A stretch of DNA of 64,000 nt from an uncultured Acidobacteriota bacterium (GTDB lineage: Bacteria > Acidobacteriota > Terriglobia > Acidiferrales > UBA7541): the NCBI GenBank assembly GCA_963749435.1, contig CAVVMU010000010.1, positions 570,678 to 634,677 on the forward strand. Direction: 5' to 3'. The stretch's first letter is position 1. Each line of letters starts with the position of its first letter. The position numbers and the translations under genes are program-made. Shown in pieces: positions 6,069 to 34,624 of this stretch. Under the pieces are notes generated by a model. That model was given only the letters and a program-made list of their open reading frames with translations. It was not told the DNA's origin and searched no databases.

Positions 6069-8816
6069 CTACGAGATTTGCTTTTTCAATTCCGCCAGAA
6101 GATTGAGGGCGTCGAGGGGTTTGAGTTGGTCGAGGTCGGCGCCGCGGAGCTTGTCGAGGACGGCCCGATCAAGCGCTGTAAAGAGGACTTCCTGGTGGCC
6201 ATTGCGGCGGTGTCCGGAGGCGGCCGGTGGTGTAGTTCCACCGCTTGCGTTTGAGGAGAGGACTTCGAGGGCGCCAGGCGAAAGCGTTTCACTGAGGGCA
6301 TGCTCGCTCTGCTCGTGTTTCTTAAGAACTTCGCGGGCGCGCTCGATGACGCTGCGAGGAAGGCCAGCGAGGCGGGCCACTTCAATGCCGTAGCTTTTGT
6401 CCGCGCTACCTGGCTCGACGCGGCGCAGAAAGATAATTTCATTGGGCGTCTCTTTCACCGAGACGTGGACGTTTTGCACGCCTGTCAGGAGATCAGCAAG
6501 CTCGGTGAGTTCGTGGTAGTGCGTCGCGAAGAGCGTACGCGCGCGGGTGTGCTTCTGCAGATGCTCGACGACAGCCCAAGCGATCGAGAGACCGTCAAAC
6601 GTCGCAGTCCCGCGGCCGACTTCATCGAGCAGAACGAGGCTCGAAGGCGTAGCGTGATGCAGGATGGCCGCGACCTCGCTCATCTCTACGAGAAACGTAG
6701 AGCGGCCGCGCGCCAGGTTATCGCTGGCGCCGATGCGCGTGAAGATGCGGTCCGTAACAGGAAGTTTGGCCTGGCGCGCCGGAACGAACGAGCCCATCTG
6801 GGCCATCAAGACGATCAGCGCGGCCTGGCGAAGGTACGTGGACTTGCCGCCCATGTTCGGTCCGGTGATAAGCAAAAGCTGTTGCCGGCCCGGGTCGAAG
6901 CAGAGATCGTTGGGAACGAAGCGCTCGCCGCGCTGGCGAAGGAGTTCTTCAATGACCGGATGACGGCCTCCGACGATGAGCAGCTCTCCGGTCGAGTTGA
7001 ACTCGGGGCGCACGTAGCCGCGGTCGGCGGCCAGCTTGGCGAACGAACTTAGCACATCGAGCTGGGCGATGGCGCCAGCCGTGCGGCGAAGACGCGCCGC
7101 TTGCCCAGCGACGATTGAGCGAATTTCGACAAAAAGCTGGCGCTCGATTTCGAGAATGCGTTCGTCGGCGGCAAGAATCTTGCGCTCGTACTCTTTCAAT
7201 TCGGGGGAAGTGAAGCGCTCCGCGTTTACGAGGGTCTGCTTGCGCTCATAATCGGCGGGCGCGAGGTGGAGATTGGGTTTCGAAATCTCCATGTAGTAGC
7301 CAAAAATGGAATTGAAGCGAATTTTCAGCGAGGAGATGCCGGTGCGTTTCCGCTCGCGCTCTTCCATGGCCGCGATGATTTCTTTGCTATGGCGGCTGAG
7401 GTTGCGAAGCTCGTCGAGTTCTCCGTCGTAGCCGCCTCGGATAATGCCAGGATCCGTCGCGAGAGCGGGCGGTTCATCGGAAATGGAGCGTTCGAGACGT
7501 TCACGGACGTCAGTCAGTTCGTCAATCTCGCCGTGCAAGCGACGCAGCAGCGCGCTGCCGCCGACCGGGGGTGGAGTGAGAAAATTCTTCAGAACTGGAA
7601 GCTGCACGAGCGATTTGCGGAGAGCAAGCAACTCGCGCGGGCCAGCGAGGCCTAAAGTGATTCGGCTCGTGAGGCGCTCGAGGTCCTGTATGCCGCGCAA
7701 CTCCTTGCGAATTTCACCGCGAACCACAGTCTGCTGCAAGAGGTGCGTGACGGATTCAAGCCGAGCCTCAATGGCATCGCTATCGATCAGAGGCCGGAGA
7801 ATCCACGAACGCAGAAGGCGCGCACCCATGCCGGTGACCGTGGCATCGAGAGCGGACACAAGCGTCACAGGTCCGCCACGCGTGCCCTCTTCGCTAAAAA
7901 TTGGCGTGATCAGCTCGAGGTTGCGGACGGAGACGGGATCGAGCACGAGCGTCTCGTGTTGTTCGTAATAGCGCACACGATCCAGATGCTGCAGAGCGTC
8001 TGCGGTGGCCGGTTGCGCACTGGTTGAGCCCGCGGAAGTATCCGGGCCGCGGGCCGCATTTTCGCGCAAATAGTGAACAATGGCGCCGGCAGCGGCGAGT
8101 GCCTGCGGATGGTCGTCCAGGCCAAAGCCCGTAAGCTCAGCGACGCCAAACTGTTCGCGCAAGATCCGTTCCGCGTAGTCGCAATGGAAAATCCAGTCTT
8201 CGAGACGGCTTTCCACGCCTCCGGCGCCTTCGAGAAGGGATGTCTTTGCAGTCTCAAAGAGTTGCTGCGGGCGCGGAAGAAGCGTTTCGCGCGGATGGAG
8301 AAGCTGCAACTCATCACGCAAGGATTCGTCCGCATCCGGCCCCGAAAATTCCGTCGACTGGAATTCACCCGTCGAAAGATCCACAAAAGCGAGGCCAACC
8401 GGCGATCCGGAAGGATGCTTGGCAACGGCGGCCAAATAATTGTTCTCGCGCGCGTCGAGAACGGAGACATCGGTGGCTGTGCCCGGCGTGATGACGCGAA
8501 CGACCTCTCGCCGCACCAATTTTTTCCCGGGGCCTGGAAGTTCCATCTGGTCACAAATGGCGACTTTGAATCCGCCTCGGATGAGCCGCGCAATGTAGCC
8601 ATCCGCAGCGTGATACGGCACACCGCACATGGGAATAGGCTGGCCCTTTTCGCGGTTGCGCGAAGTCAAAGTGATTTGCAATTCGCGCGAAGCGAGGATC
8701 GCGTCCTCGTAGAACAATTCGTAAAAATCGCCGAGACGGAAGAGCAGCAGCGCGTGCGGGTAGCGCGTCTTGATCGCGTGATACTGCTGCATCAATGGTG
8801 AGGTAGGCTCGCTCAT
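6069..8816 (-). CDS. mutS: DNA mismatch repair protein MutS
   Basis: 915-aa ORF with N-terminal PLMQQYHAIKTRYPHALLLFRLGDFYELFYEDA, Walker A GPNMGGKSTYLRQ, and DEVGRGTATFDG. Confidence 0.97.
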   Translation of the reverse strand: MSEPTSPLMQQYHAIKTRYPHALLLFRLGDFYELFYEDAILASRELQITLTSRNREKGQPIPMCGVPYHAADGYIARLIRGGFKVAICDQMELPGPGKKLVRREVVRVITPGTATDVSVLDARENNYLAAVAKHPSGSPVGLAFVDLSTGEFQSTEFSGPDADESLRDELQLLHPRETLLPRPQQLFETAKTSLLEGAGGVESRLEDWIFHCDYAERILREQFGVAELTGFGLDDHPQALAAAGAIVHYLRENAARGPDTSAGSTSAQPATADALQHLDRVRYYEQHETLVLDPVSVRNLELITPIFSEEGTRGGPVTLVSALDATVTGMGARLLRSWILRPLIDSDAIEARLESVTHLLQQTVVRGEIRKELRGIQDLERLTSRITLGLAGPRELLALRKSLVQLPVLKNFLTPPPVGGSALLRRLHGEIDELTDVRERLERSISDEPPALATDPGIIRGGYDGELDELRNLSRHSKEIIAAMEERERKRTGISSLKIRFNSIFGYYMEISKPNLHLAPADYERKQTLVNAERFTSPELKEYERKILAADERILEIERQLFVEIRSIVAGQAARLRRTAGAIAQLDVLSSFAKLAADRGYVRPEFNSTGELLIVGGRHPVIEELLRQRGERFVPNDLCFDPGRQQLLLITGPNMGGKSTYLRQAALIVLMAQMGSFVPARQAKLPVTDRIFTRIGASDNLARGRSTFLVEMSEVAAILHHATPSSLVLLDEVGRGTATFDGLSIAWAVVEHLQKHTRARTLFATHYHELTELADLLTGVQNVHVSVKETPNEIIFLRRVEPGSADKSYGIEVARLAGLPRSVIERAREVLKKHEQSEHALSETLSPGALEVLSSNASGGTTPPAASGHRRNGHQEVLFTALDRAVLDKLRGADLDQLKPLDALNLLAELKKQIS

Positions 8817-8829
8817 GGCTTAGTCAAGC

Positions 8830-10995
8830 TCATGCGCGGATTCCCAATTCGGTCAGCAAGAATGCGTAGTCGAGCGCGATTTCCCGCAGATAATCATATC
8901 GTCCGGACGCGCCGCCATGGCCCGCGCCCATGTTGATTTTAAAAAGCAAAGGGTTCGCATCCGTTTTCAACGTGCGCAACTTGGCCACGTATTTTGCCGG
9001 CTCCCAGTACATAACTTGACTGTCGTTCAAACCAGTCTTTACCAGCATCGCCGGATACGGCTTGGCCTCTACATTCGTATACGGACAATAGCTCCTCATG
9101 TAGAAATAGTCCTCAGAGACGCGCGGATCTCCCCACTCCTCATATTCTCCGACGGTCAGCGGCAGCGAAGCGTCAAGCATAGTATTCAGCACGTCGACGA
9201 ACGGCACGTGGCTGATCACCATGCGAAAAAGGTCCGGGCGCATGTTGGCCACCGCCCCCATCAAGAGACCGCCGGCGCTTCCACCTTCGATCACCAGGCT
9301 TTCCGATGTTGTGTAGCGGCGCGCGATAAGGTGCTCGGCCGCGGCGATGAAATCGGTGAACGTATTGCGCTTACTTCGCAGCCGGCCCGCGTCGTGCCAG
9401 GGCTTGCCAAGTTCACCACCGCCGCGAATGTGTGCGATGGCAAAAATCATGCCGCGATCGAGCAAGCTCACGCGGTTCGAGCTGAAGGTAACAGCGATGG
9501 AGTAACCGTAGCTGCCGTAGCCGTAAAGCAACAGGGGCGCAGTGCCGTCCAACGGAGTGTCTCTTCGATAGACGATGGAAATGGGGACGCGCGCGCCGCC
9601 TGCAGTGGCGGCGTGGAGCCGCTCGGTGACATACCGAGTGGAGTCGTAACCGCCCAACACCGGCTGCTGTTTACGAAGCGTGCTCTCGCGTTTTGCCACG
9701 TCGTAATCAAAAACAGAGCGCGGCGTGACGAAGGATTCGTACTGGTAGCGCACAAAGGTCGAATCGAACTCGGCGTTCGTTCCAATGGACGCGTTGTAGG
9801 CGGGCTCGGAAAATTCTATGCGGTGAGAGGCCGAGAGAGCATCGGGCGCTTCAATGCCGAGATCCAGGATACGGAGAAATGGCAGCCCGCCTTCGCGCTC
9901 GGAGAGAACGATATGCGATCGAAACACATCGATGCCTGCGAGCATCACGTCGGGACGATTCGGTACGACCTCCCGCCACTGGGATCGCTGAGGGTCCGAG
10001 ACCGGGGCACACATCATCCGAAAAGTTCTTCCGCCCGAGTTGGTCCGGATAAAAAAGTAGCCGCCTAAGTCCTGAGGGTTTGCGTCGCTATTTTCCCGGG
10101 TGAGCGGATTCGGATGGTGGTCTACAAAATACTCGTGGTCCGTTTCACGCCCAGCGATAAGACGAAACTCGCCGGTGGGCGCCGTCGCAGGCAGAAACCG
10201 CACTTCGCTTGTCGTGTGGCTGGCAATCAGGAGCAGAAGAAACGCCCCGCTGCGGGTGCGATCGATTTCGATGCGGAAGCGCTCGTCGGTCTCCTCATAG
10301 ATCAACGCGTCTTCTTCCGAAGAACCAACAACGTGCCGGTACAGCCGGTGAGAACGTTTGGTGGTGGCGTCCTCGACGGTATAGTAGAACGTGCGATTGT
10401 CCGCCGCCCAGGCAACGCTGGTCACGCGCTCGATCGCTTCGGGAAGATCCCGTCCGCTCCATAAGTTCTTGATGTGCAGTGTGTACTGCCGAAACCCGGT
10501 GGTATCCAGAGCGTAGGCCAGCAATTGGTTGTCATTGCTTACTTCAAAAGCGCCCAGCCCAAGGAAGGAATGGCCCTCTGCAAGTCGATTCAGGTCCAAT
10601 AGCATTTCCTCAAGTGACTCGCCGGCGTCCACGCGGCGACAATGAGTCGGATACTGTTTACCTTCCTCCGTGCACGTGAAATACAGATAACCGCGAAGCC
10701 GGTAGGGAACAGATAAGTCCGTTTGCAGAATTCTCCCCAGCATTTGCTGATAAAGAGTTTCCTGAAAGGATTCCGTGGGCCGCAAAATCGCGTCGGTGTA
10801 GGCGTTTTCCTCTTCAAGATACGCGATGACCTCGGGATTGTCTTTCTGTCGCAGCCAGGCGTAATGGTCCATCCGGCGGTCCCCGTGCAAAACAGTCTCG
10901 ACCGGTTCTCGCCTCGCAAGCGGCGGTGAAACAGAAGGAGTGTCTGGTGACCCGGTGGGAAAAGCGGGCGCTGCAGCTTTGGCGTCTGAATTCAT
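8830..10995 (-). CDS. S9-family serine peptidase, oligopeptidase B / prolyl oligopeptidase type
   Basis: 721-aa ORF with a beta-propeller N-half and a C-terminal alpha/beta hydrolase containing the nucleophile elbow GGSAGGLLMG and ...GLNDSQV...GAGHGG. Confidence 0.85.
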   Translation of the reverse strand: MNSDAKAAAPAFPTGSPDTPSVSPPLARREPVETVLHGDRRMDHYAWLRQKDNPEVIAYLEEENAYTDAILRPTESFQETLYQQMLGRILQTDLSVPYRLRGYLYFTCTEEGKQYPTHCRRVDAGESLEEMLLDLNRLAEGHSFLGLGAFEVSNDNQLLAYALDTTGFRQYTLHIKNLWSGRDLPEAIERVTSVAWAADNRTFYYTVEDATTKRSHRLYRHVVGSSEEDALIYEETDERFRIEIDRTRSGAFLLLLIASHTTSEVRFLPATAPTGEFRLIAGRETDHEYFVDHHPNPLTRENSDANPQDLGGYFFIRTNSGGRTFRMMCAPVSDPQRSQWREVVPNRPDVMLAGIDVFRSHIVLSEREGGLPFLRILDLGIEAPDALSASHRIEFSEPAYNASIGTNAEFDSTFVRYQYESFVTPRSVFDYDVAKRESTLRKQQPVLGGYDSTRYVTERLHAATAGGARVPISIVYRRDTPLDGTAPLLLYGYGSYGYSIAVTFSSNRVSLLDRGMIFAIAHIRGGGELGKPWHDAGRLRSKRNTFTDFIAAAEHLIARRYTTSESLVIEGGSAGGLLMGAVANMRPDLFRMVISHVPFVDVLNTMLDASLPLTVGEYEEWGDPRVSEDYFYMRSYCPYTNVEAKPYPAMLVKTGLNDSQVMYWEPAKYVAKLRTLKTDANPLLFKINMGAGHGGASGRYDYLREIALDYAFLLTELGIRA

Positions 10996-11161
10996 AAGTC
11001 TCTTGATCTGGTGCGCGCGGCGGGCTGGGCGCCGGGCGTTAAGCCGGATTTTGCCGGGGTCGTACTGAGCAAAGATGAAATACGTTCGTCCGCTATACTA
11101 ACGGAAGTCAGCGATGGGAGAAAGCCGCTGGTAGAGCGATTCACAGAAACATCCCGAAAGG

Positions 11162-11824
11162 ATGGAGATGGCGCAGGAAATCGAAATCAAACTCAAGATC
11201 AACGACCCAAACTCCCTTCGGGCCAGACTCAAGCGCCTCGGCGCCCGCCTCGTCGGCGGGGGAACGGGCCGCGTCCATGAGTGGAACGTCATTTTCGACA
11301 AGCCGGACGGCTCTCTTGCCAAACAGGGACAACTCCTCCGGATTCGCACGGAGACGCCCGAACGCAAGTTGAAAAAACCTGGCAAAGCGCCCGCGCAGCG
11401 CGTCCTGCTTACCTTCAAGCGACCGGTAGCCATAGCTTCGGAGGCTTCCGGCAACGCCCAAGACAACCATCGCCACAAAGTAAGGGAAGAGTTTGAACTC
11501 CAGGTCACCGATGCCGATGTCCTCACAAAGATTTTCGAAGGTCTCGGGATGAAGGGATGGTTCCGCTACGAAAAGCACCGCACAACGTTCCGCTTGCCGG
11601 CGGCAGCGCATTGGGCACAAGGACTGTTAATCGAGGTCGATGAGACTCCCATCGGCACCTATGTCGAGCTGGAAGGGCCGCCCGCCGCAATTGACCGGGC
11701 CGCTCAGGAACTCGGGTTCACAGCCCAGGACTACATTGTGATGAACTACCTCAGCCTCTATGTGGAGGACTGCCGCCGGCAGGGCAAGGAACCGAAAGAT
11801 ATGGTCTTCGCAGCCACGAAGTAG
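11162..11824 (+). CDS. CYTH-domain protein (class IV adenylate cyclase / triphosphatase-like)
   Basis: 220-aa ORF starting MAQEIEIKLKI (the ExExK CYTH signature), with later acidic strands (LIEVDETPIGTYVELE). Confidence 0.8.
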   Translation: MEMAQEIEIKLKINDPNSLRARLKRLGARLVGGGTGRVHEWNVIFDKPDGSLAKQGQLLRIRTETPERKLKKPGKAPAQRVLLTFKRPVAIASEASGNAQDNHRHKVREEFELQVTDADVLTKIFEGLGMKGWFRYEKHRTTFRLPAAAHWAQGLLIEVDETPIGTYVELEGPPAAIDRAAQELGFTAQDYIVMNYLSLYVEDCRRQGKEPKDMVFAATK

Positions 11825-11874
11825 CCGACCCAGAAGAAAAAATCAAAAAAATCGCGAACAAAGTCATTCTTTTC

Positions 11875-11903
11875 TTGACAATGAAACGCGCCGGGCTTAT
11901 CAC
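11875..11903 (+). promoter_or_regulatory. Sigma70-like promoter: TTGACA - 17 nt - TATCAC
   Basis: TTGACA at 11875-11880, a 17-nt spacer, and TATCAC at 11898-11903. It lies in an ORF-free gap 50 nt after the CYTH gene stop. Confidence 0.4.
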
Positions 11904-12256
11904 TGCTCCAGCGACTGCGAATTGGTGCTTCAATTGCTCCCATCGCGGTTCGCGAGCGCATGGCGACATATCTGCCTCCATGCAGGAGTGGATTCTCTTC
12001 CGATGAGTGCGTCCAACGAACGGGAGCCTGGCCCCAGTCGCTCGAATGTAGTGCTGTTCAGTACAGAGCGGCTTGGGAAGGGCACTTGGGCAACGCCGCG
12101 CGAGGCGCAATTCCTTCCGCAGGCGGTTGGGTGGGGAGGGTCTGCATCGGGCTAACGGTAAGTCCATTTTTCTCAGGCACTTGCCCGCGGCCGAGCTTGT
12201 TTTCGGTACGCGGGTTTTTTGTTTGTGGATGTGGTGTTCGCGGTTTGAGGTAGCAC
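11904..12256 (+). promoter_or_regulatory. Long non-coding 5' leader of the MgtE_N/CBS - NRAMP operon (candidate riboswitch/attenuator; class unassigned)
   Basis: About 350 nt with no convincing ORF. Bounded by the promoter above and ending in an intrinsic terminator 37 nt before the ATG at 12257. Possible long-range helix GCGACTG (11911-11917) / CAGTCGC (12035-12041). Confidence 0.35.
12184..12220 (+). terminator. Intrinsic terminator-like hairpin inside the leader
   Basis: CCCGCG-G-CCGA / loop GCTTGTTT / TCGG-TA-CGCGGG (10 bp with a small bulge) followed by TTTTTTGTTTG. Confidence 0.6.
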
Positions 12257-26166: not shown

Positions 26167-27484
26167 CATAAGCGCTAAGATAAGCAATCAATTTGTGGTT
26201 TTCGTTTCCGATGGGGTTCGCTCAGGGCTGCGGCGATTTGGTTCCAACTCTGCAACACCGCTTGCAGCGGCACCTCTGGGAGCAGCGCTGCGATTACCTG
26301 GTGGAATGCAAACTGAAACTCACGCCACCGGCTGCGGGTTCTCAGTTTCGGGTAAGGAGTAGCCCCAGGGGGAAATCGTTCTTCCTACTCGTGCCAACTT
26401 TTGGCTCAGCAAGGCCACGAACAGTTTGCCGTACAACCAAGCACGGGTGCTTTGGTCATCATGTTTGGGGACATGTCCTAATTGGGCGATCGACTTCAAG
26501 CGTTTGAAGGTCAACTCGATTTGCCATCGCAGGCGATAACATTCCAGAACTTGTCGCGCGGTTGCGCTAGCCGAGGAAAGCGTCGTGAACACCAGCACAT
26601 ACTGGGCGTATTGCCACGTTTCAGGGCTGACCACCTTTCCCCGTTTCTCCGCCAGCCTCTTTTGCGCCCGTGCCATCGCTTCGCGACTCTTGCGAATGGC
26701 GCAGAGCCGCCCCGCAATCCGGTGTTGGCCGGAATGCACCCATACCGGCCACGCGTTCACGTCCCCCGCCTCTTGCAGCCCGGCCAAGGATTCCAGCAAC
26801 GGAAATGACTTGCTCCGCTTATCCCACAAAGGCAGGGCGTGAGGATTCAGGCGCACACACACATCCGCCTGTTGCTCGACCACCGCCGCAATCCCGGCCG
26901 GATGGCAGTAGCCCGCATCGGCCAGAACCAGTTCGCCAGCACGGAAACGAAAACGTCCGAACTTCTCTCCGGCGCCTTCGCCTTCGGTGGCAGTGAGAGC
27001 GAAATAATCGCACTCCAACGTGGGCAAGCGCAGGCTGTAGTGAATCCGCCACTGGCTGCCCGTCCTGCCTGGTTCGCGAACCACGGTGGCGTCCAGCAGA
27101 CGCACGTTGCGGCCCTGTAGCCTCGGCTGCAAATCGACCCCGCTGTCCTTCCATAGCCGCTGACACAACTGCCGCAGCCAATCCTCAGCATCCCGTAAGC
27201 GATTCAACAGTGTGACATCCGAGACGTTGGCAATCCCTGCCAACTTTGCTTGCACCGCCGTCTCGCGCAGCGACCAACCACAGCCCACATGCAACAGCAG
27301 CGTACGCAGCAAGGCTTCCAACGACGGGAAGCCGCGCAACCGCCGCACCGCTCCGCTGCTCCTCCCCAACTGCCGCCACTCCAGGGGAAATAGCCCCAGC
27401 AGAATCTCCCAGTCTTCCAGTTCAGCCATGTGCGGAGGCTACATCTAACCCAGCAACCAGTCAACTGTTATCTTAGCGCTTATG
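26167..27484 (-). mobile_element. IS4-family insertion sequence (1318 bp)
   Basis: Perfect 17-bp terminal inverted repeats: CATAAGCGCTAAGATAA (26167-26183) and TTATCTTAGCGCTTATG (27468-27484). They enclose a single DDE transposase ORF. Both flanks are G-rich (G17 on the left, GGGGAGGGGGGGG on the right), consistent with a target-site duplication. Confidence 0.85.
26320..27429 (-). CDS. IS4-family DDE transposase
   Basis: 369-aa ORF with LLDATVV (D1 region), LVLADAGY (D2) and the C-terminal YRLRWQIELTFKRLKS, which is the Y-(2)-R-(3)-E-(6)-K signature of IS4-family enzymes. Confidence 0.9.
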   Translation of the reverse strand: MAELEDWEILLGLFPLEWRQLGRSSGAVRRLRGFPSLEALLRTLLLHVGCGWSLRETAVQAKLAGIANVSDVTLLNRLRDAEDWLRQLCQRLWKDSGVDLQPRLQGRNVRLLDATVVREPGRTGSQWRIHYSLRLPTLECDYFALTATEGEGAGEKFGRFRFRAGELVLADAGYCHPAGIAAVVEQQADVCVRLNPHALPLWDKRSKSFPLLESLAGLQEAGDVNAWPVWVHSGQHRIAGRLCAIRKSREAMARAQKRLAEKRGKVVSPETWQYAQYVLVFTTLSSASATARQVLECYRLRWQIELTFKRLKSIAQLGHVPKHDDQSTRAWLYGKLFVALLSQKLARVGRTISPWGYSLPETENPQPVA

Positions 27485-27595: not shown

Positions 27596-29407
27596 TCACG
27601 GGATCACTACGCCGCGATTTGCTGCGCCCATTTGGGCCCCTTCGGAATCTCGTACTACGGTGCGAACCAGCAACGTTCCTGGTTGGAGATCAAAGCTCAA
27701 TTTCACGTTCAGGCCCGTCTTGTTCACTCGTTCCAGGGTTACATCTTTCAGCCGCAGGTCGAGGACTCGCTGCAGGCCGGCAAGCATTCTCCCGTTCTCG
27801 TCGAAGATGGCAGTGGTGATCGTCAACGTATCCTGGTTGCGTCCATCCACCTTACGAAACTTGAGTTCTTCGGTCCCTACATGGGTGACCACGGTGAGGT
27901 GGGCTCCGTCCGCGCCCTTGAAGAATTGCGCCTGGCATTCGATGGGTAGCTCGCGCAGTTCCTCCTGCGAGAAGACCGCCTGCTGGATCTCCTCTCTGGC
28001 CGCAGTTTCGGGGTTGGATTTGCCGCCCGGGGCGAAATAGCCGTGGCGGGCCTGCAGCCCCCATTTTTCTTTGTTCACTAACGTCACTTTTAGAGTGTGA
28101 TACTTCCCATCGATCTTTAAGTTTTGTGGTGTAAATCCCAGTACATAGGAAACTTCTGGCTCGGCCGCGGCATGCAGCAGACCTTGATCAATGTCATTCC
28201 GGTCGTGAAAGAAAACTCCGCCGGTGCCGTCTGCCAGGTCCGCGAGCGGCGCGAAGTGCGTTTCTTCTTCCCTCATTGTGGATTGTGTCTTCAGAGGACT
28301 AACAGAGGCGGTGGTGGCTAAGTTGGATGCGTCATAGACGGAGGATACCCACAGGCCCCGCGCATCAATCGTATTGATCACAACATTTTCTTTCGTGGCC
28401 CGGTCGATGACCTCCCCTTCCGGCTGATGCATTGATGGAAGCACGAAAAATCCCGGCGACATCATCACGATGACGCGCTGTCCGGGCAGGACGCTCATCC
28501 TTCGAATTAAAGCCTCCAGAGTTTGATACGTACGCTGTTCCTCCGCTTCCGCGATATTCAGCACCATCGAGGCCGCTGCCCCTACAATACCCGCGGCTGT
28601 CTGAGCCGCGCCTGGGTCTTTGGGCGAAATCCCGCTGCAATTCATGTAGTCCTGGATGGCCACTTGTATCGCGGAGGGGTCGATGGCAGCTGCAATCATA
28701 AATGCTTCGTCCAAGGTCATCGGCGGACAGCCCGCAGAGCTTTGCACGAGTGAATGCGGCAAGATTCGCTGGACCGCCTCCTCGAGTTTCCCTCGGTCCG
28801 CCGTAAAATCCTGTGCCACTTGACCGGAGGTGGTGAAAATGGAGAGGCGGTCGCGAGCCCCCATGGCCGCGAAGAGCTTCGCGGTGGCCTGTCGCGAAAA
28901 CATGGCGTCTTGAAGCGACAGATGGAGATCGTCGAAGAATAATGCGACGAACCTTTGCGGCAAAACTGCCGCTTTCACCGGTGTTCCTTCCGAAGTTGCC
29001 TCCTCTGAATCGACGGTAGGCGCGTGGGAAGCAGGAGTCTCTACGGAAAAACTCGAAATGATCTGTGGTCTGCGGTCGTCCGCGAGTTGAAAATCTTCCT
29101 TTTTCAGATTGGAAACGACCTTGCCGTTGCTGTCGCGCACAACGACGTGCACAAGGACTAAGTTGACGCGCACCTTAAACGTCGCAGGAGAATCGTGCGA
29201 AACGATTTCGTCGTTGGATGCCTTCGCGTCCGGTTTGGGGGCGTTTTGGGATGTGTCAGCCGGTGGGGCTTGAGGAGCTTGCGCAGTTGCGGATTGCGCT
29301 TGGGTGTCTGCAACGGGCAAACCGAAGGTGGAGAGCATGCCGCCAAGCAGAGCGAGCCAGACGGTTCTCGTAAGACTACCCGAAGTACGCCCGAGTAGAA
29401 TCGTCAC
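27596..29407 (-). CDS. VWA-domain protein of the acidobacterial VWFA-related type, secreted
   Basis: 603-aa ORF with a signal/TM N-terminus, then FKVRVNLVLVHVVVRDSNGKVVSNLKKEDFQLADDRRPQIISSF (the pattern I associate with TIGR03436), and a central VWA-like region. Confidence 0.8.
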   Translation of the reverse strand: MTILLGRTSGSLTRTVWLALLGGMLSTFGLPVADTQAQSATAQAPQAPPADTSQNAPKPDAKASNDEIVSHDSPATFKVRVNLVLVHVVVRDSNGKVVSNLKKEDFQLADDRRPQIISSFSVETPASHAPTVDSEEATSEGTPVKAAVLPQRFVALFFDDLHLSLQDAMFSRQATAKLFAAMGARDRLSIFTTSGQVAQDFTADRGKLEEAVQRILPHSLVQSSAGCPPMTLDEAFMIAAAIDPSAIQVAIQDYMNCSGISPKDPGAAQTAAGIVGAAASMVLNIAEAEEQRTYQTLEALIRRMSVLPGQRVIVMMSPGFFVLPSMHQPEGEVIDRATKENVVINTIDARGLWVSSVYDASNLATTASVSPLKTQSTMREEETHFAPLADLADGTGGVFFHDRNDIDQGLLHAAAEPEVSYVLGFTPQNLKIDGKYHTLKVTLVNKEKWGLQARHGYFAPGGKSNPETAAREEIQQAVFSQEELRELPIECQAQFFKGADGAHLTVVTHVGTEELKFRKVDGRNQDTLTITTAIFDENGRMLAGLQRVLDLRLKDVTLERVNKTGLNVKLSFDLQPGTLLVRTVVRDSEGAQMGAANRGVVIP

Positions 29408-29791
29408 TACGCATCCCCCCTTGAGCTTGCGTCAATCTACTGTTAATGCCACGAGCCCGTCAGCCTTGAGACTTGCTCGCACAATTGAGATGGGCGTGCC
29501 CAAATTCGCTCGCATCTAATGTAATGACGAGAAAACCGGACTTTCGGGTACGGCCGGGTTGGAATCCATCACTCAGTGAGCAGGGATCTGGTTACCGACT
29601 CCTGGTTTGTCGATTATTACCGGCCAATATTTTGAATCACACCCCTAAAAGCTGCAGGCGAGAAGGGTTATTCTCTTTCAGTTGGGTTTTTGTTTCAGGA
29701 GGAAGGAGCTCCGCTTCCGGCTGCGATCTTGGCGGGTCAACGCCGGAGGGCAGAGCCCCAATACGCTACGATTCTGTTTATCCCATTTTCC

Positions 29792-30301
29792 GTGGCGCCG
29801 CACAAGCTCGAAACGGATTGGGCCACGAGTTGCGCCGAGGTCATTCTGCGGCGATGTCCCGCTTGTGAACACGATTCGATCATCGGCCACGGACGCCGCC
29901 TCAAACAGGCGCACGATGAACACCACGACTGGATCGGGATCCGTCGCGGTCGCTGCCCCGGTTGCGGGAAAACCTTCACCTTCCTTCCACTGTTTTCTCT
30001 CCCTTACACCCATTACAGCTTGCCGACTCGTTGCCAGGCATTGCGGCGGCGCTTTGCGGAGCATTGCTCCTGGGAAGAGGCAGTGCCTACGCTCAAAGAT
30101 CCTAATCGCGTGCCTGATCCTTCCACACTTCGCCGCTGGGCCCACGGACTGGACCGCTCCCAACCGGCACTTTCCTTTCTCCACCAAGCGCTCGCCCGCA
30201 TGGCTCACTGGTCGGCGCTTGGTGATCCGCCCAATCACCAAGCTGGGCTTTTGTCTGGGCTGATTCCGGTTCTGCAAATTCTTTGGCCCTTGCGGCTCTG
30301 A
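29792..30301 (+). CDS. Cys4 zinc-ribbon protein, DUF6431-like
   Basis: Track ORF 29690..30301. The likely start is the in-frame GTG at 29792. It contains RRCPACEHDSIIGHGRR...IGIRRGRCPGCGKTFTFLPLF, a two-CxxC pattern I recall for DUF6431. Confidence 0.6.
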   Translation: MAPHKLETDWATSCAEVILRRCPACEHDSIIGHGRRLKQAHDEHHDWIGIRRGRCPGCGKTFTFLPLFSLPYTHYSLPTRCQALRRRFAEHCSWEEAVPTLKDPNRVPDPSTLRRWAHGLDRSQPALSFLHQALARMAHWSALGDPPNHQAGLLSGLIPVLQILWPLRL

Positions 30302-30335
30302 GAAATTTCCTCCTGCCCACCATCCTTGCCTGGGA

Positions 30336-31376
30336 ATGCTGGCCACCTTCTCCTATGTTCGCCTCCAGAGGCAAAACTGCGCCGTGGGCGAGGATATCGA
30401 AAAACTGAAACAGCGCCTTTCGCTGCTCGATTATCTGCGGCAGCAGCATTGGGCCGCCCGGCCTATCGCTTTCGGCCCCGAGTTCGTCGGACTCTGTCCG
30501 CTACATCCGGAAACCCGGCCTTCGTTCTATGTCAACACTCGCAAGAATCTCTTCTACTGTCACGGTTGCGGCCAGGGCGGCGATCTCCTTCGCTTTGTCC
30601 AGTTGTCCCGTCATCTTTCCTTCCGCCAAAGTCTCGCCTACCTCCAGCAGCAAAGCGCTCTTACAGCTGACCCTGCCGCCGTGCTGGAGCAAGCCGCCAC
30701 TTTCTATCAACAGCAACTCGAACGCTACCCCGAGGCACGGCGCTATCTCGAGCAACGAGGACTGCGCGATCCCCTCCTGATCAAAGAACTGCGCATCGGT
30801 TATGCCCCCGGCGGGAGCTTGCGCCGACATCTCGCGGCTCAAGGTTATTCTTGCGAGCTCCTAAAACGTCTCGGCCTTCTCAACCCACAAGGCTGCGACG
30901 CTTTCTACCGGCGCGTCATCTTCCCGTGCTGCCAAGGCGGACGCGTCGTCAACCTCTACGGCCGCAGTGTCGCTGCCGCCTTCGCCCATCGATTCCTCCC
31001 CGGCTCGAAGGGCGGCTTGTTCGCCTGGGAATCGGTTCGCCAGTTTCCTGCGGCGATTCTGGTGGAAGGTCTGTTCGATCTCGCAGTGTTGTAGCACGCC
31101 GGTTTTCGCCACGCCACCTGTTCGTTGGGCACCCATCTCAACGCTGACCAGTTTCAACAGTTGTGCGACCGTCCGCGCACCGTTTATCTCACCTTCGATG
31201 TCGACGCCAACGGCAGTGGACAACAAGCCTCGCAACAGTTAGCGCAGCGTCTGTGCGCGCAAGGCATCGCCACTCGCCGCGTTCTCCTGCCCGAGGGCCA
31301 CGATCCGAACTCTTTCTTCGTCCAGGGCGGTGACGCAGGACAGTTTCAAACTCTTCTGGAGGCTGCTCAGCCATGA
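30336..31376 (+). pseudogene. DnaG-type primase (CHC2 zinc finger + Toprim) interrupted by one in-frame TAG
   Basis: ORFs 30336..31094 and 31125..31376 are in the same frame, separated only by TAG at 31092-31094. The N-part has CPLHPETRPSFYVNTRKNLFYCHGCGQGGD (CHC2). The Toprim Glu (ILVEGLFDLAVL) lies just before the stop, and the Toprim DxD (LTFDVDANGSG) lies after it. Confidence 0.75.
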
Positions 31377-32419
31377 AGTTCTGTGTGCACTACCAGCAGA
31401 CCTCCCACAACGCACAAAGTCCGGTTCGTGTCGTCGAGCAGACCACTGGCCGAGGCATCGGCTGGATCAATCGTTACTTGGATCGCGAATATATCCGCCG
31501 CTTGGCGAACACCACTCTGCGCATCTACGCTCACAACCTGCTGCACTTTGTTCGCTGGTGGGAGAGTGTTCATCACATCGGCGACGTTAGGGAAGATGAC
31601 CTTACCGAGTCCACGCTCCTGGACTATCTGCGCTTCCAGTCCAGCCAACAACCTCGGCCTTCCCCTTCCACCATCAATGACCGCGTGGCCGTCGCCGAGC
31701 GCGCCATCCGCAACGAGTTCCCCGATGCTCCCTGCCAGATCGCCCGCGGCTTTCATCAAGCTTTTTTGCGGCGAAGGCCGATGGGTCTTGGCCGGCGGCA
31801 AGTAGCGATGAGCCGACTGCGCGTGAAGGTGCCCAAACGCAACATCGTGCCGCTCTCGGTGGATGAAGTAGCGCGCTTCTGGTCGAGTTTCCGCACTTCG
31901 CGCGACTTGGCCATCGTGGGCTTGATGTTACTGCAAGGGCTGCGGTCCGCCGAAGTATTGGCTTTGAATCGCGACGGCGCGTTGCTTTCCGAAGCACAAC
32001 TTCGCGTTCCAGGCAAAGGCAAGAAATTTCGTCTCTTGCCGTTGGCGCCAGAAACTGTGCAACTGCTCGAACACTACCTGCGATTGGAACGGCCCAATCC
32101 CTGCTCCGCCGCGCTCTTCGTCTCACTCAAAGGACACGCGCGCGGAACTCGTATGACCGCTGCGGGATTACGATCCTTATTCCGCTACCATCGCCAGGCC
32201 ACCGGCATTCAGCTCGCCAACCCTCATCGATTTCGCCACACCTTTGCCTCCGACATGATCCGCGCCGGAATGAGTCTTCCCGCGCTCATGCAGTTGATGG
32301 GTCACGCCGATATCCAGACCACGCTGCTGTATGTGCAAGTCACCCCACAAGACGTCTATCTGCAATATGCGCGCGCCGTGGCGCAGCACATTCGTCCTCT
32401 TCCGAGGACTCCCTCATGA
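31373..32419 (+). CDS. Tyrosine-type recombinase/integrase (first of tandem pair)
   Basis: 348-aa ORF with ...LRSAEVLAL...(Arg I region), NPHRFRHTFASDMIRAG, LMGHADIQTTLLYVQV (H-x-x-R, H, Y catalytic set). ATGA overlap with the primase stop. Confidence 0.9.
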   Translation: MKFCVHYQQTSHNAQSPVRVVEQTTGRGIGWINRYLDREYIRRLANTTLRIYAHNLLHFVRWWESVHHIGDVREDDLTESTLLDYLRFQSSQQPRPSPSTINDRVAVAERAIRNEFPDAPCQIARGFHQAFLRRRPMGLGRRQVAMSRLRVKVPKRNIVPLSVDEVARFWSSFRTSRDLAIVGLMLLQGLRSAEVLALNRDGALLSEAQLRVPGKGKKFRLLPLAPETVQLLEHYLRLERPNPCSAALFVSLKGHARGTRMTAAGLRSLFRYHRQATGIQLANPHRFRHTFASDMIRAGMSLPALMQLMGHADIQTTLLYVQVTPQDVYLQYARAVAQHIRPLPRTPS

Positions 32420-33555
32420 ACCGCGCGCGACGCCCTCCGCTACGACATCCTCTGGCTCCGGTCTTCGACCGGGCAGTCGATTCCTTCAGCGTGGCACTCA
32501 GTCCCGGAACCATTCGTCAACACCGCGGGACGGCACGCAACTTCCTAAACTATCTCGGCGCTGATCATCCGGAGGTGAAGTGCCTCGACCAATTGCGTCG
32601 TGAACCCCACATCCTCGGCTGGATGTCCCGCCTGCACTCGCAAGCGCCGCCGCTGTCCACGGCGTCCTATATCAATCGGCTTATCGCTCTACGTTCTATT
32701 TTCAACGAGCTGGCTTGGACCGAACAGCTTTCTGCACTCGCTCATCTGATCCGCCGCGAGGACATTCCGCGCCTCCCGCAAAGACTTCCACGCCCACTCA
32801 CGGCAGAGCAGGACGAACTGCTGCAGCAGGAGTTCCGCTTGCGCAATGATCTCGGCGGCAACGTCTTTCTGCTCATCCGTCACACCGGCATGCGCATCGG
32901 TGAGTGTGCCGATCTGTCCTTCGACTGCCTGCGCTCTACCGGCCCAGGTCAATGGGCGATTCACGTGCCGCTCGGCAAACTCAAAACGGAACGTATGGTC
33001 CCCGTAGATCCCTTTGTGTGTGAACTCGTCCAACGCCTCCGCTTCTTTCGTTCTCTTGATCCGCAGCCTGCCGATGGACGGCTCCTGGCCCGTCTGGGCG
33101 CCAAAGACACGCTCCTTCGCAACTTTCGTGATTACTTGCATCAAGTCTGCCATTCGCTCGGCCTTTCCACGCACATCGTCCCCCACCAATTTCGTCACAC
33201 CTATGCCTCGGAAATGCTTCGAGCCGGCGTTGGTTTTCCCGCGGTAATGAAATTACTCGGTCACACCTCTCCCGAAATGACCATGCAATATCTTGATGTC
33301 ACGTTGAATGATCTCCAGCGGGCATTTGAGCTGGCTCGCTCAAAACCTCGGCATCTGGTTCCGCAACCGAGGGTGCCGTCTGCCCCCCTTCGAACTGGCC
33401 TCGGCGGAGTGCTCGATTCTTTGCTTGCTACTCAACATGTGCTCGAAACGTTCCGCCGCTCGCTGCCAAACGGAACTTCTCGCCGTCGCCTGGACCGGCT
33501 CTCCAACCGCCTCACCAAAATCCTTAGCGAAGCTCGCAAGCTCCCGACACCCTGA
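32416..33555 (+). CDS. Tyrosine-type recombinase/integrase (second of tandem pair)
   Basis: 379-aa ORF with TGMRIGECADL, VPHQFRHTYASEMLRAG and LLGHTSPEMTMQYLDV. ATGA overlap with the first recombinase. Confidence 0.9.
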   Translation: MNRARRPPLRHPLAPVFDRAVDSFSVALSPGTIRQHRGTARNFLNYLGADHPEVKCLDQLRREPHILGWMSRLHSQAPPLSTASYINRLIALRSIFNELAWTEQLSALAHLIRREDIPRLPQRLPRPLTAEQDELLQQEFRLRNDLGGNVFLLIRHTGMRIGECADLSFDCLRSTGPGQWAIHVPLGKLKTERMVPVDPFVCELVQRLRFFRSLDPQPADGRLLARLGAKDTLLRNFRDYLHQVCHSLGLSTHIVPHQFRHTYASEMLRAGVGFPAVMKLLGHTSPEMTMQYLDVTLNDLQRAFELARSKPRHLVPQPRVPSAPLRTGLGGVLDSLLATQHVLETFRRSLPNGTSRRRLDRLSNRLTKILSEARKLPTP

Positions 33556-33634
33556 ACATGGGCAGAGATTGACCGGTTATGTCGGGTAATCGGAAGCTGA
33601 TCCGGTACCCCATTGGCAGTGCGCTTGTCAAAGT

Positions 33635-34624
33635 GTGCGGCGCACCGTAAAGTGGAACGTTTGTTGCGGTGGCGTTTTAGTTGGCATGGCGATGGCATCG
33701 ACCAAGAAAAAGACAAGGAATAAAAAGAAGCCAAGCGCAGCGAATCGCACAGCTGCGAAACCGGTTACGTTGACCGCTGGAGAGTGGTTCGAGAAGCTCG
33801 CGGCGGTACAAGCGCGATTGCGTGCTCCGGATGGCTGCCCCTGGGACCGTGAGCAAACGCACGCATCGCTTCGGACCTATTTGATCGAAGAAGCTTATGA
33901 GGTTCTGGAGGCGATGGGGAGCGGAGACGATGCGAAGTTCGCTGATGAAATGGGTGATTTGCTTTTGCAAATCGTGTTTCATTCGCAGATCGCCAGGGAG
34001 GAAGGACGGTTTGAAGTTTCGGACGTAATTCGCGCGGTGCACGACAAAATGGTCAGGCGGCATCCGCACGTTTTCGGCGAGAAACGGGCGAAAGATGCGG
34101 CTGAGGTACTTAAGAATTGGGAGCAGATCAAGAAAGAAGAGCGAGCTGCGGCGGGCAAAAAGACGGAGGGAGCGAAGAAGGAATCCAAGCCCGCCTCGAT
34201 GCTGGATGGAGTTTCGCGAGCGCTGCCTGCCGGACTGGAAGGCTTTCAGCTTACGCGGCGTGCCGCGCGAATCGGATTTGATTGGGATAACGTCGAAGGC
34301 GTGTTCGACAAAATGAACGAAGAGGCGGGAGAGCTTCGGCAAGCGCTAGGCGCGAAAGACGCTGGACGCTCTGAAGAAGAGATGGGCGATTTGCTCTTTG
34401 CCGCCGTGAACCTGGCGCGTTTTCTCCATATCGACCCGGAAATTGCTCTGAAGAAAGCCAACGCGAAATTTTCCACGCGATTCCGCCGAATGGAGGCGAT
34501 GGCTGCAGAGAGCGGCAGGGCACTTGCCGATGTACCTCGCGAGCAAATGGAAGAGTATTGGGAGGCGGCAAAGCGCGCCGAGAGCGAAGCCTCGCTGAAG
34601 AAAGCGGAGGCGCGCAAAGCCTGA
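33635..34624 (+). CDS. mazG: Nucleoside triphosphate pyrophosphohydrolase MazG
   Basis: Tandem MazG repeats: CPWDREQTHASLRTYLIEEAYEVLEA...GDLLLQIVFHSQIA...HPHVFG, and a second EEAGELRQA...GDLLFAAVNLARF. The true start is possibly ATG at 33686. Confidence 0.88.
   Translation: MRRTVKWNVCCGGVLVGMAMASTKKKTRNKKKPSAANRTAAKPVTLTAGEWFEKLAAVQARLRAPDGCPWDREQTHASLRTYLIEEAYEVLEAMGSGDDAKFADEMGDLLLQIVFHSQIAREEGRFEVSDVIRAVHDKMVRRHPHVFGEKRAKDAAEVLKNWEQIKKEERAAAGKKTEGAKKESKPASMLDGVSRALPAGLEGFQLTRRAARIGFDWDNVEGVFDKMNEEAGELRQALGAKDAGRSEEEMGDLLFAAVNLARFLHIDPEIALKKANAKFSTRFRRMEAMAAESGRALADVPREQMEEYWEAAKRAESEASLKKAEARKA

Follow-up and report, generated by a model that had tools for sequence, protein, structure and literature searches.

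The four co-directional genes between a VWFA-like gene and mazG in the window, the 64-kb stretch of DNA analysed here, form a discrete mobile element. With a probability of roughly 80%, the window holds one slightly damaged copy of a cargo-free, site-specific transposon of ~4 kb (~3.97 kb). This transposon is IS-like in behaviour but built on tyrosine recombinases, and it is widespread and abundant in soil Acidobacteriota. The gene order, already proposed in a first-pass annotation, is borne out by the open reading frames and by Pfam: gene 1 matches DUF6431 (E 4.6e-11), gene 2 matches Zn_ribbon_DnaG, DNAG_N and Toprim, and genes 3 and 4 each match Phage_integrase (E 1.5e-26 and 4e-23). The ATGA gene overlaps lie at 31373-31376 and 32416-32419, exactly where they had been placed. 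No ORF beyond these four is found between the element ends, and the region is free of cargo, phage and conjugation genes, as the same annotation had held.

Table 1. Features of the element and its surroundings (positions within the window).
Feature	Position	Strand	Sequence or remark
VWFA-like gene	27596-29407	minus	left neighbour
Left target arm ('B' arm), host DNA	29598..29608	+	ACTCCTGGTTT
Left crossover core	29609..29612	+	GTCG
Left terminal arm	29613..29628	+	ATTATTACCGGCCAAT; inverted repeat of right arm
Conserved non-coding leader	29629..29764	+	contains CAGGAGGAAGGAGCTCCGCTTCCGGCT; probable promoter/RBS and cis-acting sites
DUF6431 Zn-ribbon gene	29765..30301	+	Pfam DUF6431; motif CxxC...KQAHDEHHDW...CxxC
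DnaG-type primase gene	30336..31376	+	CHC2 Zn finger, catalytic core and Toprim; inactivated in window copy
Tyrosine recombinase 1 (YR1, 348 aa)	31373..32419	+	Pfam; by alignment, homologue of Tn554-like short partner
Tyrosine recombinase 2 (YR2, 379 aa)	32416..33555	+	by alignment, homologue of recombinase region of Tn554-like long partner
Right terminal arm	33568..33580	+	ATTGACCGGTTAT; reverse complement of left arm
Right crossover core	33581..33584	+	GTCG
Right target arm ('B-prime' arm), host DNA	33585..33596	+	GGTAATCGGAAG
mazG	start 33635/33677, end 34624		right neighbour

The interval originally assigned to the element, 29408-33634, does contain it but is ~200 bp too wide on the left and ~50 bp on the right; the element spans 29609-33584 (3,976 bp). 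Similarity to all other copies starts at 29600-29609 and stops at 33584. Because it is confined to this range, the outer parts of the original interval, 29408-29608 and 33585-33634, belong to the host's intergenic DNA. Inverted arms of 13 bp, ATTGGCCGGTTAT / ATAACCGGCCAAT, form the ends, and the right arm reads ATTGGCCGGTTAT in most copies. Within single long-read genomes, copies are 99.7-99.95% identical over 3,981-4,001 bp between unrelated flanks, the identity setting in at the left terminal arm (29613). The motif TAACCGGCCAAT in the left arm is retained down to subfamilies with recombinase identities of only 40-47%. Every copy has a core of 3-5 bp at both junctions, which varies by subfamily (GTCG, as in the window copy, GCCG, GCCC, GTGG or CAGGC).

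An empty junction in relatives had been suggested as a way to define the ends, and the orthologous site upstream of mazG is indeed empty in close relatives. Their right flank is 87-94% identical to the window. At locus L170 the homology of the flank (94% over 820 bp) starts exactly at the right core, 33581, and the empty site reads AGTCCTGATTT-GTCG-GGTAATCGGAAAC. The empty sites L170 and L171 have just one copy of the core, and the sequence of the right target arm is also present in L170 to L172. A pseudo-palindromic consensus of ~30 bp is common to the targets at 62 distinct insertion sites; to the left it is informative for only ~13 nt beyond the core, and to the right of the core it reads gc.AacCGga. 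Insertions avoid ORFs: a frame of at least 100 codons spans 19 of 43 sites, compared to 38.6 ± 1.7 for control positions.

Species-representative genomes contain the four-gene unit at 327 loci, and metagenomes at more than 574; taxon labels outside Acidobacteriota stem from MAG binning and are provisional. These hundreds of recurrences with precise, common ends place the unit far beyond chance. It is not fixed at one locus but occurs in many different contexts, with several near-identical copies per genome: at least five in one 6.6-Mb contig and at least seven in another MAG. The element is a very common, apparently unannotated repeat of soil Acidobacteriota that breaks short-read assemblies and sits at synteny breakpoints, and for these reasons its recognition should improve both annotation and the reading of genome rearrangement in a major soil phylum. 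Reading frames are intact in most copies. All four genes are under purifying selection, with dN/dS values of 0.22-0.30 for the DUF6431 gene, 0.21-0.25 for the intact primase, 0.14-0.26 for YR1 and 0.21-0.37 for YR2 (0.44 in the most divergent YR2 pair).

Metagenome contigs of 3,972-3,973 bp start and stop at the core without terminal overlap, a sign of collapsed repeats. They speak against an integrative mini-plasmid, a free 4-kb replicon kept via its primase and integrating reversibly, whose integrated phase would be the chromosomal copies. Some integrative plasmids and satellites do have this gene set of primase and integrase, and the conserved non-coding leader of 130 bp might act as an origin. 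However, no circular contig was found, the joint sequence of a circular junction was absent from 169 loci and from IMG/VR, a plasmid database of 72,556 records gave no match to the element, and Rep, helicase and partition genes are missing from it. Element copies are integrated in all long contigs. We regard a mini-plasmid as quite improbable.

A P4- or PICI-like phage satellite or phage-inducible island, mobilized by a helper phage, is close to refuted. No core genes are commoner in satellites than integrase and primase, and the PHROG matches of the element are phage primases and integrases. A tyrosine integrase paired with a primase is common to the element and to P4-type satellites, PICIs and integrative plasmids, all of which replicate after excision. 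These systems, however, possess a single integrase, a primase-helicase or Rep, regulators, packaging functions and only one attB, whereas the element has two recombinases and a bare DnaG-like primase, and reaches several copies per genome at many insertion sites rather than at one tRNA or attB. At only 4 kb it lacks regulators and packaging or capsid-redirecting genes, and the family is absent from the viral contigs of IMG/VR. An anti-phage defence system was rejected as well: PADLOC returned only generic DnaG-like matches to DRT-associated models and no match for DUF6431 or either recombinase.

Both recombinases had been credited with complete catalytic sets, and the R-K-H-R-H-Y residues are indeed present in YR1 (R191, K215, H285, R288, H311 and Y320) and YR2 and invariant in an alignment of six sequences. 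The analogy to Tn554 also holds at the sequence level. By alignment, YR1 and YR2 are homologues of the short and the long partner of Tn554-type modules, respectively, where the modules aligned are actinobacterial ones with DUF6262/TnpC, classed as Tn554-like in PMC3414803, and not Tn554 itself. YR1 shares 35-37% identity with 360-aa recombinases encoded on plasmids of Rhodococcus and Mycobacterium (35.8% to the 360-aa short partner, E 8e-39). YR2 matches the long partner with 33% identity over 318 aa (E 5e-39) and the short partner with E 1e-11; its length is 379-383 aa in every subfamily.

A chance neighbourhood of host housekeeping genes (XerC/XerD and DnaG) is refuted by the present data. 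The top NCBIfam models are Xer and dnaG, but every score is far under the curated cut-off, and the block is multicopy, variable in locus, bounded by defined inverted ends and missing from the orthologous site. For the recombinases, XerC/XerD identity was rejected on scores of 116 and 96 bits against cut-offs of 335 and 330, together with the multicopy state and mobile ends. The primase scores 182 bits against TIGR01391 (cut-off 283.6), covering model positions 7-354 of 414; it was set apart from chromosomal dnaG by this score, by its length of 332 aa without the C-terminal helicase-binding (DnaB-binding) region and by its travelling with the element. The first-pass annotation had named clustering with XerC/XerD and dnaG, or a single fixed locus in all relatives, as grounds for refutation; both were checked and neither applies.

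The DnaG-type identity of the primase stands: the CHC2, Toprim E and DxD motifs can be read directly from the sequence, and the protein matches the PDB DnaG structure 2au3 (E 4e-42). What had been overlooked is an in-frame TAG at 31092-31094, which in the window copy leaves a 252-codon frame with the Zn-ribbon and the N-terminal catalytic core and cuts off the Toprim part. This codon is TGG (Trp) in five other copies, and intact primases of other copies have 332-333 aa. The frame is broken in the window copy and a few others and intact in most. With its nonsense mutation, the window copy is either decaying or reliant on other copies. The element encodes no helicase, initiator or recognisable origin, and the primase by itself is no replication system.

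Where the DUF6431 gene starts is uncertain: the mechanical ORF opens at TTG 29690, but this TTG is not conserved, and conserved coding begins near 29765, with codon-position entropy of the coding type. The stretch 29669-29788 is among the lowest-entropy parts of the element (0.26-0.35); codon periodicity is absent from it (0.30/0.46/0.30), and its indel lengths are not multiples of 3. The DUF6431 protein has 1,372 homologues among protein clusters. An AF2 model (pLDDT 61) predicts a Zn-ribbon beta sheet followed by helices; a structure search with it gave no significant fold match.

Most likely, the element circularises and integrates site-specifically, and its own primase would render this process replicative. 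The two recombinases would bind the 13-bp inverted arms at both ends and swap strands across the short core. Thereby the ends would join into a circle, and the joint, ATTGGCCGGTTAT-core-ATAACCGGCCAAT, would constitute a classical core-type recombination site. The circle could then integrate at chromosomal sites that have the same core with arm-like CCGG half-sites on either side, mostly intergenic. As had been suggested, the most likely role of the primase is to start DNA synthesis on an intermediate that has been excised or copied out; transposition would then be replicative (copy-out, paste-in), and many identical copies could accumulate. DUF6431 is most likely a DNA-binding accessory factor, in the position held by TnpC or Srap in related elements. 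We infer the circle, a division of labour between the recombinases, the replicative step and the roles of primase and DUF6431.

Conservative cut-and-paste, in which an integrative element excises and reintegrates without element-directed replication, would account for the empty sites in relatives. Primase and DUF6431 would then have some other task, such as regulation, repairing the donor site, or interfering with host replication or competitors. A primase is dispensable for classical tyrosine-recombinase elements, the element is devoid of origin, initiator and helicase, and the window copy and a few others persist with broken primase genes. Cut-and-paste out of a replicated sister chromosome could be another route to the multicopy state. 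On the other hand, the primase is intact in most copies and its dN/dS stays at ~0.22 across subfamilies down to 59% identity, up to at least seven near-identical copies per genome are hard to reach by strict cut-and-paste, and the related strand-biased circularizing integrative elements (SE) copy out without leaving the donor site empty (PMC10214605). We consider strict cut-and-paste unlikely.

Replicative transposition may extend further, to a self-priming copy-out, paste-in cycle, which we put forward tentatively and at less than even odds. In this cycle the two recombinases would produce one strand or a nicked circle by copy-out or excision, in the way suggested for SE and Tn554-type elements, and the DnaG-like primase would begin the complementary strand at the conserved leader. 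DUF6431 would serve as a Zn-ribbon specificity factor of a new kind for recombination or priming, common to DDE transposons, and the element might represent the first tyrosine-recombinase transposon family with its own primase. For the question of how Tn554-, SE- and GInt-type elements copy via tyrosine recombinases alone, a primase-bearing relative points to the replication step, and a primase knock-out offers a simple genetic handle on it.

That the unit might be undescribed had been suspected, and the multicopy state, ends and empty site support a small mobile unit of which no published description was found in the searchable literature. The primase and Zn-ribbon genes had been considered foreign to Tn554 and RIT elements; indeed, no known Tn554, RIT, SE or GInt element has a primase or DUF6431. 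The closest likeness is to the Tn554 family (Tn554, Tn6188 and actinobacterial tnpAB(C) modules; Tn554-like recombinase pairs are recorded in Actinobacteria, PMC3414803). Both have two adjacent, co-directional catalytic tyrosine recombinases and no other transposase type, insert site-specifically with a short core at either junction and without a duplication of the transposase type, and reach several identical copies in some hosts. In contrast to Tn554, the element has two extra conserved upstream genes (DUF6431 and the DnaG-type primase) and 13-bp terminal inverted repeats (perfect in most copies), is cargo-free and uses many target sites per genome. The Tn554-like long partner has 611-828 aa with a Cys-rich C-terminal extension, a segment that YR2 lacks in the alignment. 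DUF6262 is TnpC (PMC11947258); tnpC has no match among the element's four proteins, and some Tn554-like modules are also without it.

SE and GInt islands likewise combine two catalytic tyrosine recombinases with accessory proteins, show target preference without transfer genes, and are bounded by imperfect terminal inverted repeats of 13-19 bp flanking a short spacer. SE copy-out without an empty donor site is a behaviour that would fit the element's primase. By gene content and description, rather than by sequence alignment, SE/GInt are nevertheless distinct: their core set, intA-tfp-intB-srap, includes a third, catalytically dead recombinase-fold gene (tfp/ginC) and srap/ginD, while the element has no third recombinase-fold gene. 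They measure 7-16 kb or more, carry cargo and occur in one or two copies per replicon, as opposed to ~4 kb without cargo, and SEs have been detected only in Gammaproteobacteria. Four genes, 13-bp arms and a ~30-bp target make up this compact and fully defined recombination system. Natural variants are numerous, with core and arms that differ by subfamily, which makes the element valuable as a model and perhaps as a tool for programmable site-specific integration.

RIT elements are, like the element, small cargo-free units with overlapping co-directional tyrosine recombinase genes. They have three recombinases (ritA, ritB and ritC), in contrast to the two Phage_integrase proteins here. A genuine RIT (465, 327 and 336 aa) is nested inside some copies of the element, and the two are therefore distinct.

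DUF6431 gains its first functional context from the element. In Clostridia it is also encoded as the first gene of a multicopy transposable cassette, in which it is joined by a DDE integrase and an AAA ATPase instead of tyrosine recombinases and a primase, an organisation that we take to be IS21-like.

The four-gene block between the VWFA-like gene and mazG is a mobile element present in several near-identical copies per genome. It forms a discrete unit bounded by inverted recombinase-type arms and by a short core that also occurs in its targets; a target consensus and an empty site were identified, and all four genes are under selection. In the window the element comprises four co-directional ORFs (see table). 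The two ATGA start/stop overlaps described in the first-pass annotation were present as stated, and the complete catalytic set claimed there for both tyrosine recombinases, YR1 and YR2, was borne out by alignment with relatives, in which R191, K215, H285, R288, H311 and Y320 (YR1 numbering) are invariant. The interval it had assigned was too long and was corrected to the ends set by copy comparison. Indeed, these ends are visible solely when copies are compared; a generic repeat finder detected no convincing terminal repeats within the window. The window contained no tRNA as a possible target, and no known RNA was detected in the element. The primase frame of the window copy carries an in-frame TAG at 31092-31094, within the part encoding the Toprim domain; the codon is TGG (Trp) in five other copies, and uninterrupted primases are 332-333 aa long. 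The window copy is therefore probably non-autonomous or decaying, unless the TAG is a sequencing error.

Features of the window copy and its neighbours, with pairwise dN/dS between diverged copies (DUF6431 pairs for which a wrong frame was picked are left out)
Feature	Position	Strand	Description	dN/dS
VWFA-like gene	27596-29407	minus	left neighbour of the element	
Element	29609-33584		window copy	
DUF6431 protein gene			first ORF; Pfam DUF6431, E 4.6e-11	0.22-0.30
DnaG-type primase gene			second ORF; Pfam Zn_ribbon_DnaG and DNAG_N, then Toprim	0.21-0.25
YR1 gene			third ORF; 348 aa; Pfam Phage_integrase	0.14-0.26
YR2 gene			fourth ORF; 379 aa; Pfam Phage_integrase	0.21-0.37, 0.44 in the most divergent pair
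mazG	33635/33677-34624		right neighbour of the element	

A search of 5.8 billion proteins returned 1,372 homologues of the DUF6431 protein, of which the best 120 were all at least 62% identical and came mostly from soil metagenomes and Acidobacteriota MAGs. Whether the synteny recurs elsewhere had been raised as a check, and it does: the identical four-gene order was found in unrelated contexts (beside amidohydrolases, an RND efflux operon, carbonic anhydrase or an IS66 transposase), with several copies per genome. Scans yielded 327 element loci in a collection with one genome per species and more than 574 in JGI metagenomes. One long-read MAG carried at least 5 copies on a single 6.6-Mb contig, a second MAG at least 7, and several more at least 3 to 5; these numbers are lower bounds from the best 80 loci of each collection scan. 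Copies from the same genome share 99.7-99.95% identity across 3,981-4,001 bp and lie between unrelated flanks. Metagenome contigs of 3,972 and 3,973 bp begin and finish exactly at the element core and look like a collapsed repeat, not a circle. Hosts were mostly Terriglobia or Acidoferrales; a few MAGs, some with contigs of 65-450 kb, carry the binning-based labels Acidimicrobiia, Limnocylindria, Methylomirabilota, Verrucomicrobiia or Betaproteobacteria.

Alignment of copies defined the termini. The right end is ATTGGCCGGTTAT followed by a core of 3-5 bp, and the left end is the same core followed by (A/G)TTAT(T/A)ACCGGCCAAT. The arms (GGCCGGTTA; target sequence TTCCGGTTA) are 13-bp inverted repeats, perfect in most copies. 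The core, present at both junctions of each copy, is GTCG in the subfamily of the window; other subfamilies have GCCG, GCCC, GTGG or CAGGC. The left and right junctions of some copies disagree at the fourth core base, as would be expected of an exchanged region that is partly heteroduplex. The window copy reads ACTCCTGGTTT-GTCG-ATTATTACCGGCCAAT at its left junction and ATTGACCGGTTAT-GTCG-GGTAATCGGAAG at its right. At 62 distinct insertion sites, the flanks were informative for no more than about 13 nt to the left of the core and 12-16 nt to its right; the consensus of GTCG-type targets (...tcCcG..t-GTCG-gc.AacCGga) and that of GCCG-type targets (gaTaAcTTCCgg.Tt-GCCG-accAtcCg.cCagAac) are both arm-like. 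The arm TAACCGGCCAAT is kept even in freshwater subfamilies whose recombinases are just 40-47% identical to those of the window. Joined hypothetically, the two ends give ATTGGCCGGTTAT-core-ATAACCGGCCAAT, which to judge from its sequence has the layout of a classical core-type tyrosine-recombinase site, as known from lambda, Cre/loxP and XerCD/dif. A promoter formed at the joined ends was considered and rejected, the spacing being unfit on reading the sequence, and a promoter scan of the element found nothing.

The joint was also looked for directly. The pattern ATTGRCCGSTWAWGYCSNNNNTWASCGGCCAR, as expected of a circle or tandem, gave 0 matches in 169 loci and in IMG/VR, and PLSDB held neither a DNA match nor a DUF6431 protein match. 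An integrative mini-plasmid is thus improbable, as circular contigs or joints and plasmid matches were not found and the element encodes no Rep or helicase.

None of the fetched element loci contained an empty site. Empty sites were reached by tracing MazG orthologues (96%, 94% and 89% identical) to their contigs, and the element was absent from all of these. In L170, one of the loci without the element, 820 bp upstream of mazG align with the window at 94% identity, and this homology begins exactly at 33581. Its site, AGTCCTGATTT-GTCG-GGTAATCGGAAAC, contains a single GTCG, so that the relative with an empty mazG junction sought by the first-pass annotation does exist. Two further loci of this kind, L171 and L172, read ACCCTGGTTA-GTCG-GCTGATCGGAAAC. 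We compared window positions 33581-33700 with L170:2600-2790, L171:1890-2080 and the corresponding part of a fourth element-free locus (L173:6840-7030). All share the sequence on the right-hand side of the core, and beyond the ~11-nt arm on the left the window, L170, L171/L172 and L173 are all unlike; upstream neighbours are GreA, a 632-aa protein or a 308-aa protein, and in the window the VWFA-like gene and an IS4-like transposase. The differing left neighbours make the attB upstream of mazG a synteny breakpoint as well, consistent with rearrangements mediated there. The IS4-like DDE transposase (369 aa, DDE_Tnp_1; 26320-27429, minus strand), two genes to the left of the element and missing from the syntenic region of L173, is a further mobile insertion in the same variable region.

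A phage satellite is very unlikely: the genes present, the number of copies, the variety of insertion sites, the absence of the element family from IMG/VR and the empty site all contradict it. Insertions tend to be intergenic: open frames of 100 codons or more span only 19 of 43 reconstructed sites, versus 38.6 +/- 1.7 for control positions taken from these flanks. In three MAGs (L015:11598-11677, L008:9895-9975, L091:5849-5921), a conserved 80-bp sequence adjoins the insertion. It is occupied in both orientations (L008, L091) and unoccupied in L015, where it reads AAATCCCGGATT-GTCG-GCTACCCGCAAG and adjoins a gene for a 496-aa transposase; some targets thus lie inside another repeated element.

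The first-pass annotation had named clustering of the recombinases with housekeeping XerC/XerD, and of the primase with the chromosomal dnaG, among the findings that would speak against its reading. Both recombinases are Xer-like in NCBIfam, with scores far under the cut-offs. A housekeeping Xer pair with DnaG can practically be dismissed, since gene content, copy number, the many insertion sites and the empty site all contradict it. Among 72,556 plasmids, the best matches of YR1 were 360-aa recombinases of Rhodococcus and Mycobacterium plasmids (35-37% identity), whose modules consist of a short and a long recombinase together with DUF6262. For YR2, the long recombinase is by far the better match (33% over 318 aa, E 5e-39, versus E 1e-11 for the short one); YR2 does not have the Cys-rich segment found in the C-terminal extension of the long recombinase. 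YR1 and YR2 are 31% identical in the catalytic domain. DUF6262 is the TnpC of the Tn554-family transposon Tn6188 (PMC11947258), and actinobacterial recombinase pairs have been described as Tn554-like, some multicopy and some without TnpC (PMC3414803). The recombination module belongs to the wider Tn554/SE/GInt kind, a likeness drawn from comparison with these actinobacterial Tn554-like modules. The primase resembles bacterial DnaG (PDB 2au3, E 4e-42; TIGR01391, 182 bits versus a cut-off of 283.6) and terminates after the Toprim domain; its nearest plasmid relatives are ~30% identical. The element combines DUF6431, a DnaG-type primase and two recombinases of similar size without TnpC, and it is further set apart by its 13-bp inverted arms, cargo-free 4-kb size, high copy number and host range. 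The searchable full-text literature on DUF6431, on Tn554/tyrosine recombinases with primase/DnaG and on Acidobacteria contained no matching family. The element is not categorically new; these distinguishing features match no described family found.

The DUF6431 protein has an invariant core, CxxC...SIxGHG.R.KQAHD..HDW...CxxC..FTFLP. A first AF2 model (pLDDT 43) was set aside as unusable; a more diverse alignment gave a model of moderate confidence (pLDDT 61, core 67-87), with a predicted beta-sheet Zn-ribbon followed by helices. This second model had no significant PDB neighbour. Its best local matches, at E >=0.1, were NrdR, an RNA polymerase I subunit and ribosomal proteins, which as far as the model goes are nucleic-acid-binding Zn-ribbons. 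A His-Me finger (beta-beta-alpha-Me) nuclease was also considered. A PDB profile search aligned CPxCE..SIxG..HDxxHD..CxxC with Hpy99I (E 0.039), and Pfam Endonuclease_7 matched 1 of 24 members (E 0.039). The Asn after the second CxxC is missing and no nuclease is among the neighbours of the AF2 model, which leaves this assignment a weak lead. Longer DUF6431-bearing proteins were rejected as deletion chimeras with neighbouring genes. Clostridial DUF6431 proteins belong to multicopy cassettes that also encode a DDE integrase and an AAA ATPase, so the domain recurs as an accessory of transposable elements. The DUF6431 frame opens right after an in-frame TGA at 'xTILFIPLS' (window 29690-29845) in about two thirds of copies, and sixteen copies have no ATG, GTG or TTG ahead of the Zn-ribbon although the stretch looks coding; a distant homologue begins 'MCILIPLS'. 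The reading frames imply a non-AUG start (ATT or CTG), readthrough or frameshifting.

All four genes are maintained by selection (dN/dS, see table). Most of 72 unique full-length copies have uninterrupted frames, which from stop to stop measure 355-370 codons for the primase, 361 for YR1 and ~395 for YR2, and codon-position entropy is of coding type in all four genes (~0.3/0.27/0.75). Positions 29669-29764 are among the most conserved stretches of the element (entropy 0.26-0.35), show no periodicity and have indels that are not multiples of three, and so represent a non-coding cis element. This leader holds an SD-like AGGAGG, the palindrome GGAGCTCC and CTTCCGG, a target-arm half-site that might, speculatively, be an accessory binding or priming site. 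A possible long hairpin with a GGAGCT/AGCTCC stem and A-T to G-C co-changes appeared when 14 sequences were compared; with 41 sequences the stem was not recovered, and ~12 A-C mismatches were counted by eye. In every subfamily, coding-strand GC skew is ~-0.14 (-0.12 to -0.16) and AT skew ~-0.10, opposite to neighbouring plus-strand host genes. Because the skew probably stems from Arg/Leu/Pro/His/Gln-rich proteins, it was not counted as support for single-stranded intermediates.

By analogy with the families involved, we infer circle formation and reintegration. YR1 and YR2 would synapse the two ends and exchange strands across the core, giving a circle with an attP-like joint that would integrate at attB-like sites. 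Conservation of the primase across all subfamilies, together with the high copy numbers, argues that it takes part in transposition; the simplest role of the primase would be to prime synthesis on an excised or copied-out intermediate. Pure cut-and-paste, with the primase serving an unrelated function, is the less likely course. SE elements, which also use tyrosine recombinases, transpose by copy-out, do not leave the donor site empty and produce nicked double-stranded circles (PMC10214605), behaviour that the proposed primase-primed step echoes. The DUF6431 protein would act as a DNA-binding accessory in the place of TnpC or the SE accessory protein Srap.

Two copies are often spaced 8-12 kb apart within a contig, as direct or inverted pairs (L074/L071, L023/L024, L050/L051, L012/L020). 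They flank ~4 kb of host DNA, which in L074/L071 carries genes for a hybrid histidine kinase and a FIST protein. Composite structures or a preference for local reinsertion could account for such pairs. The element is itself a target: two copies of one genome contain a 3.57-kb RIT element (465, 327 and 336 aa; L010:8642-12234, L013:8636-12228), the two insertions being 99.8% identical and in opposite orientations. In each case the insertion point immediately follows the codon for the catalytic tyrosine of YR1 (...CTGCTGTAT), and TGTAT (GCTGTAT in L010) is repeated at both junctions, which suggests that RITs target a motif at this codon. Another insertion of 3.4 kb, distinct from the RIT and with its own inverted ends, interrupts the L035 and L036 copies near 8574-11961 in opposite orientations.
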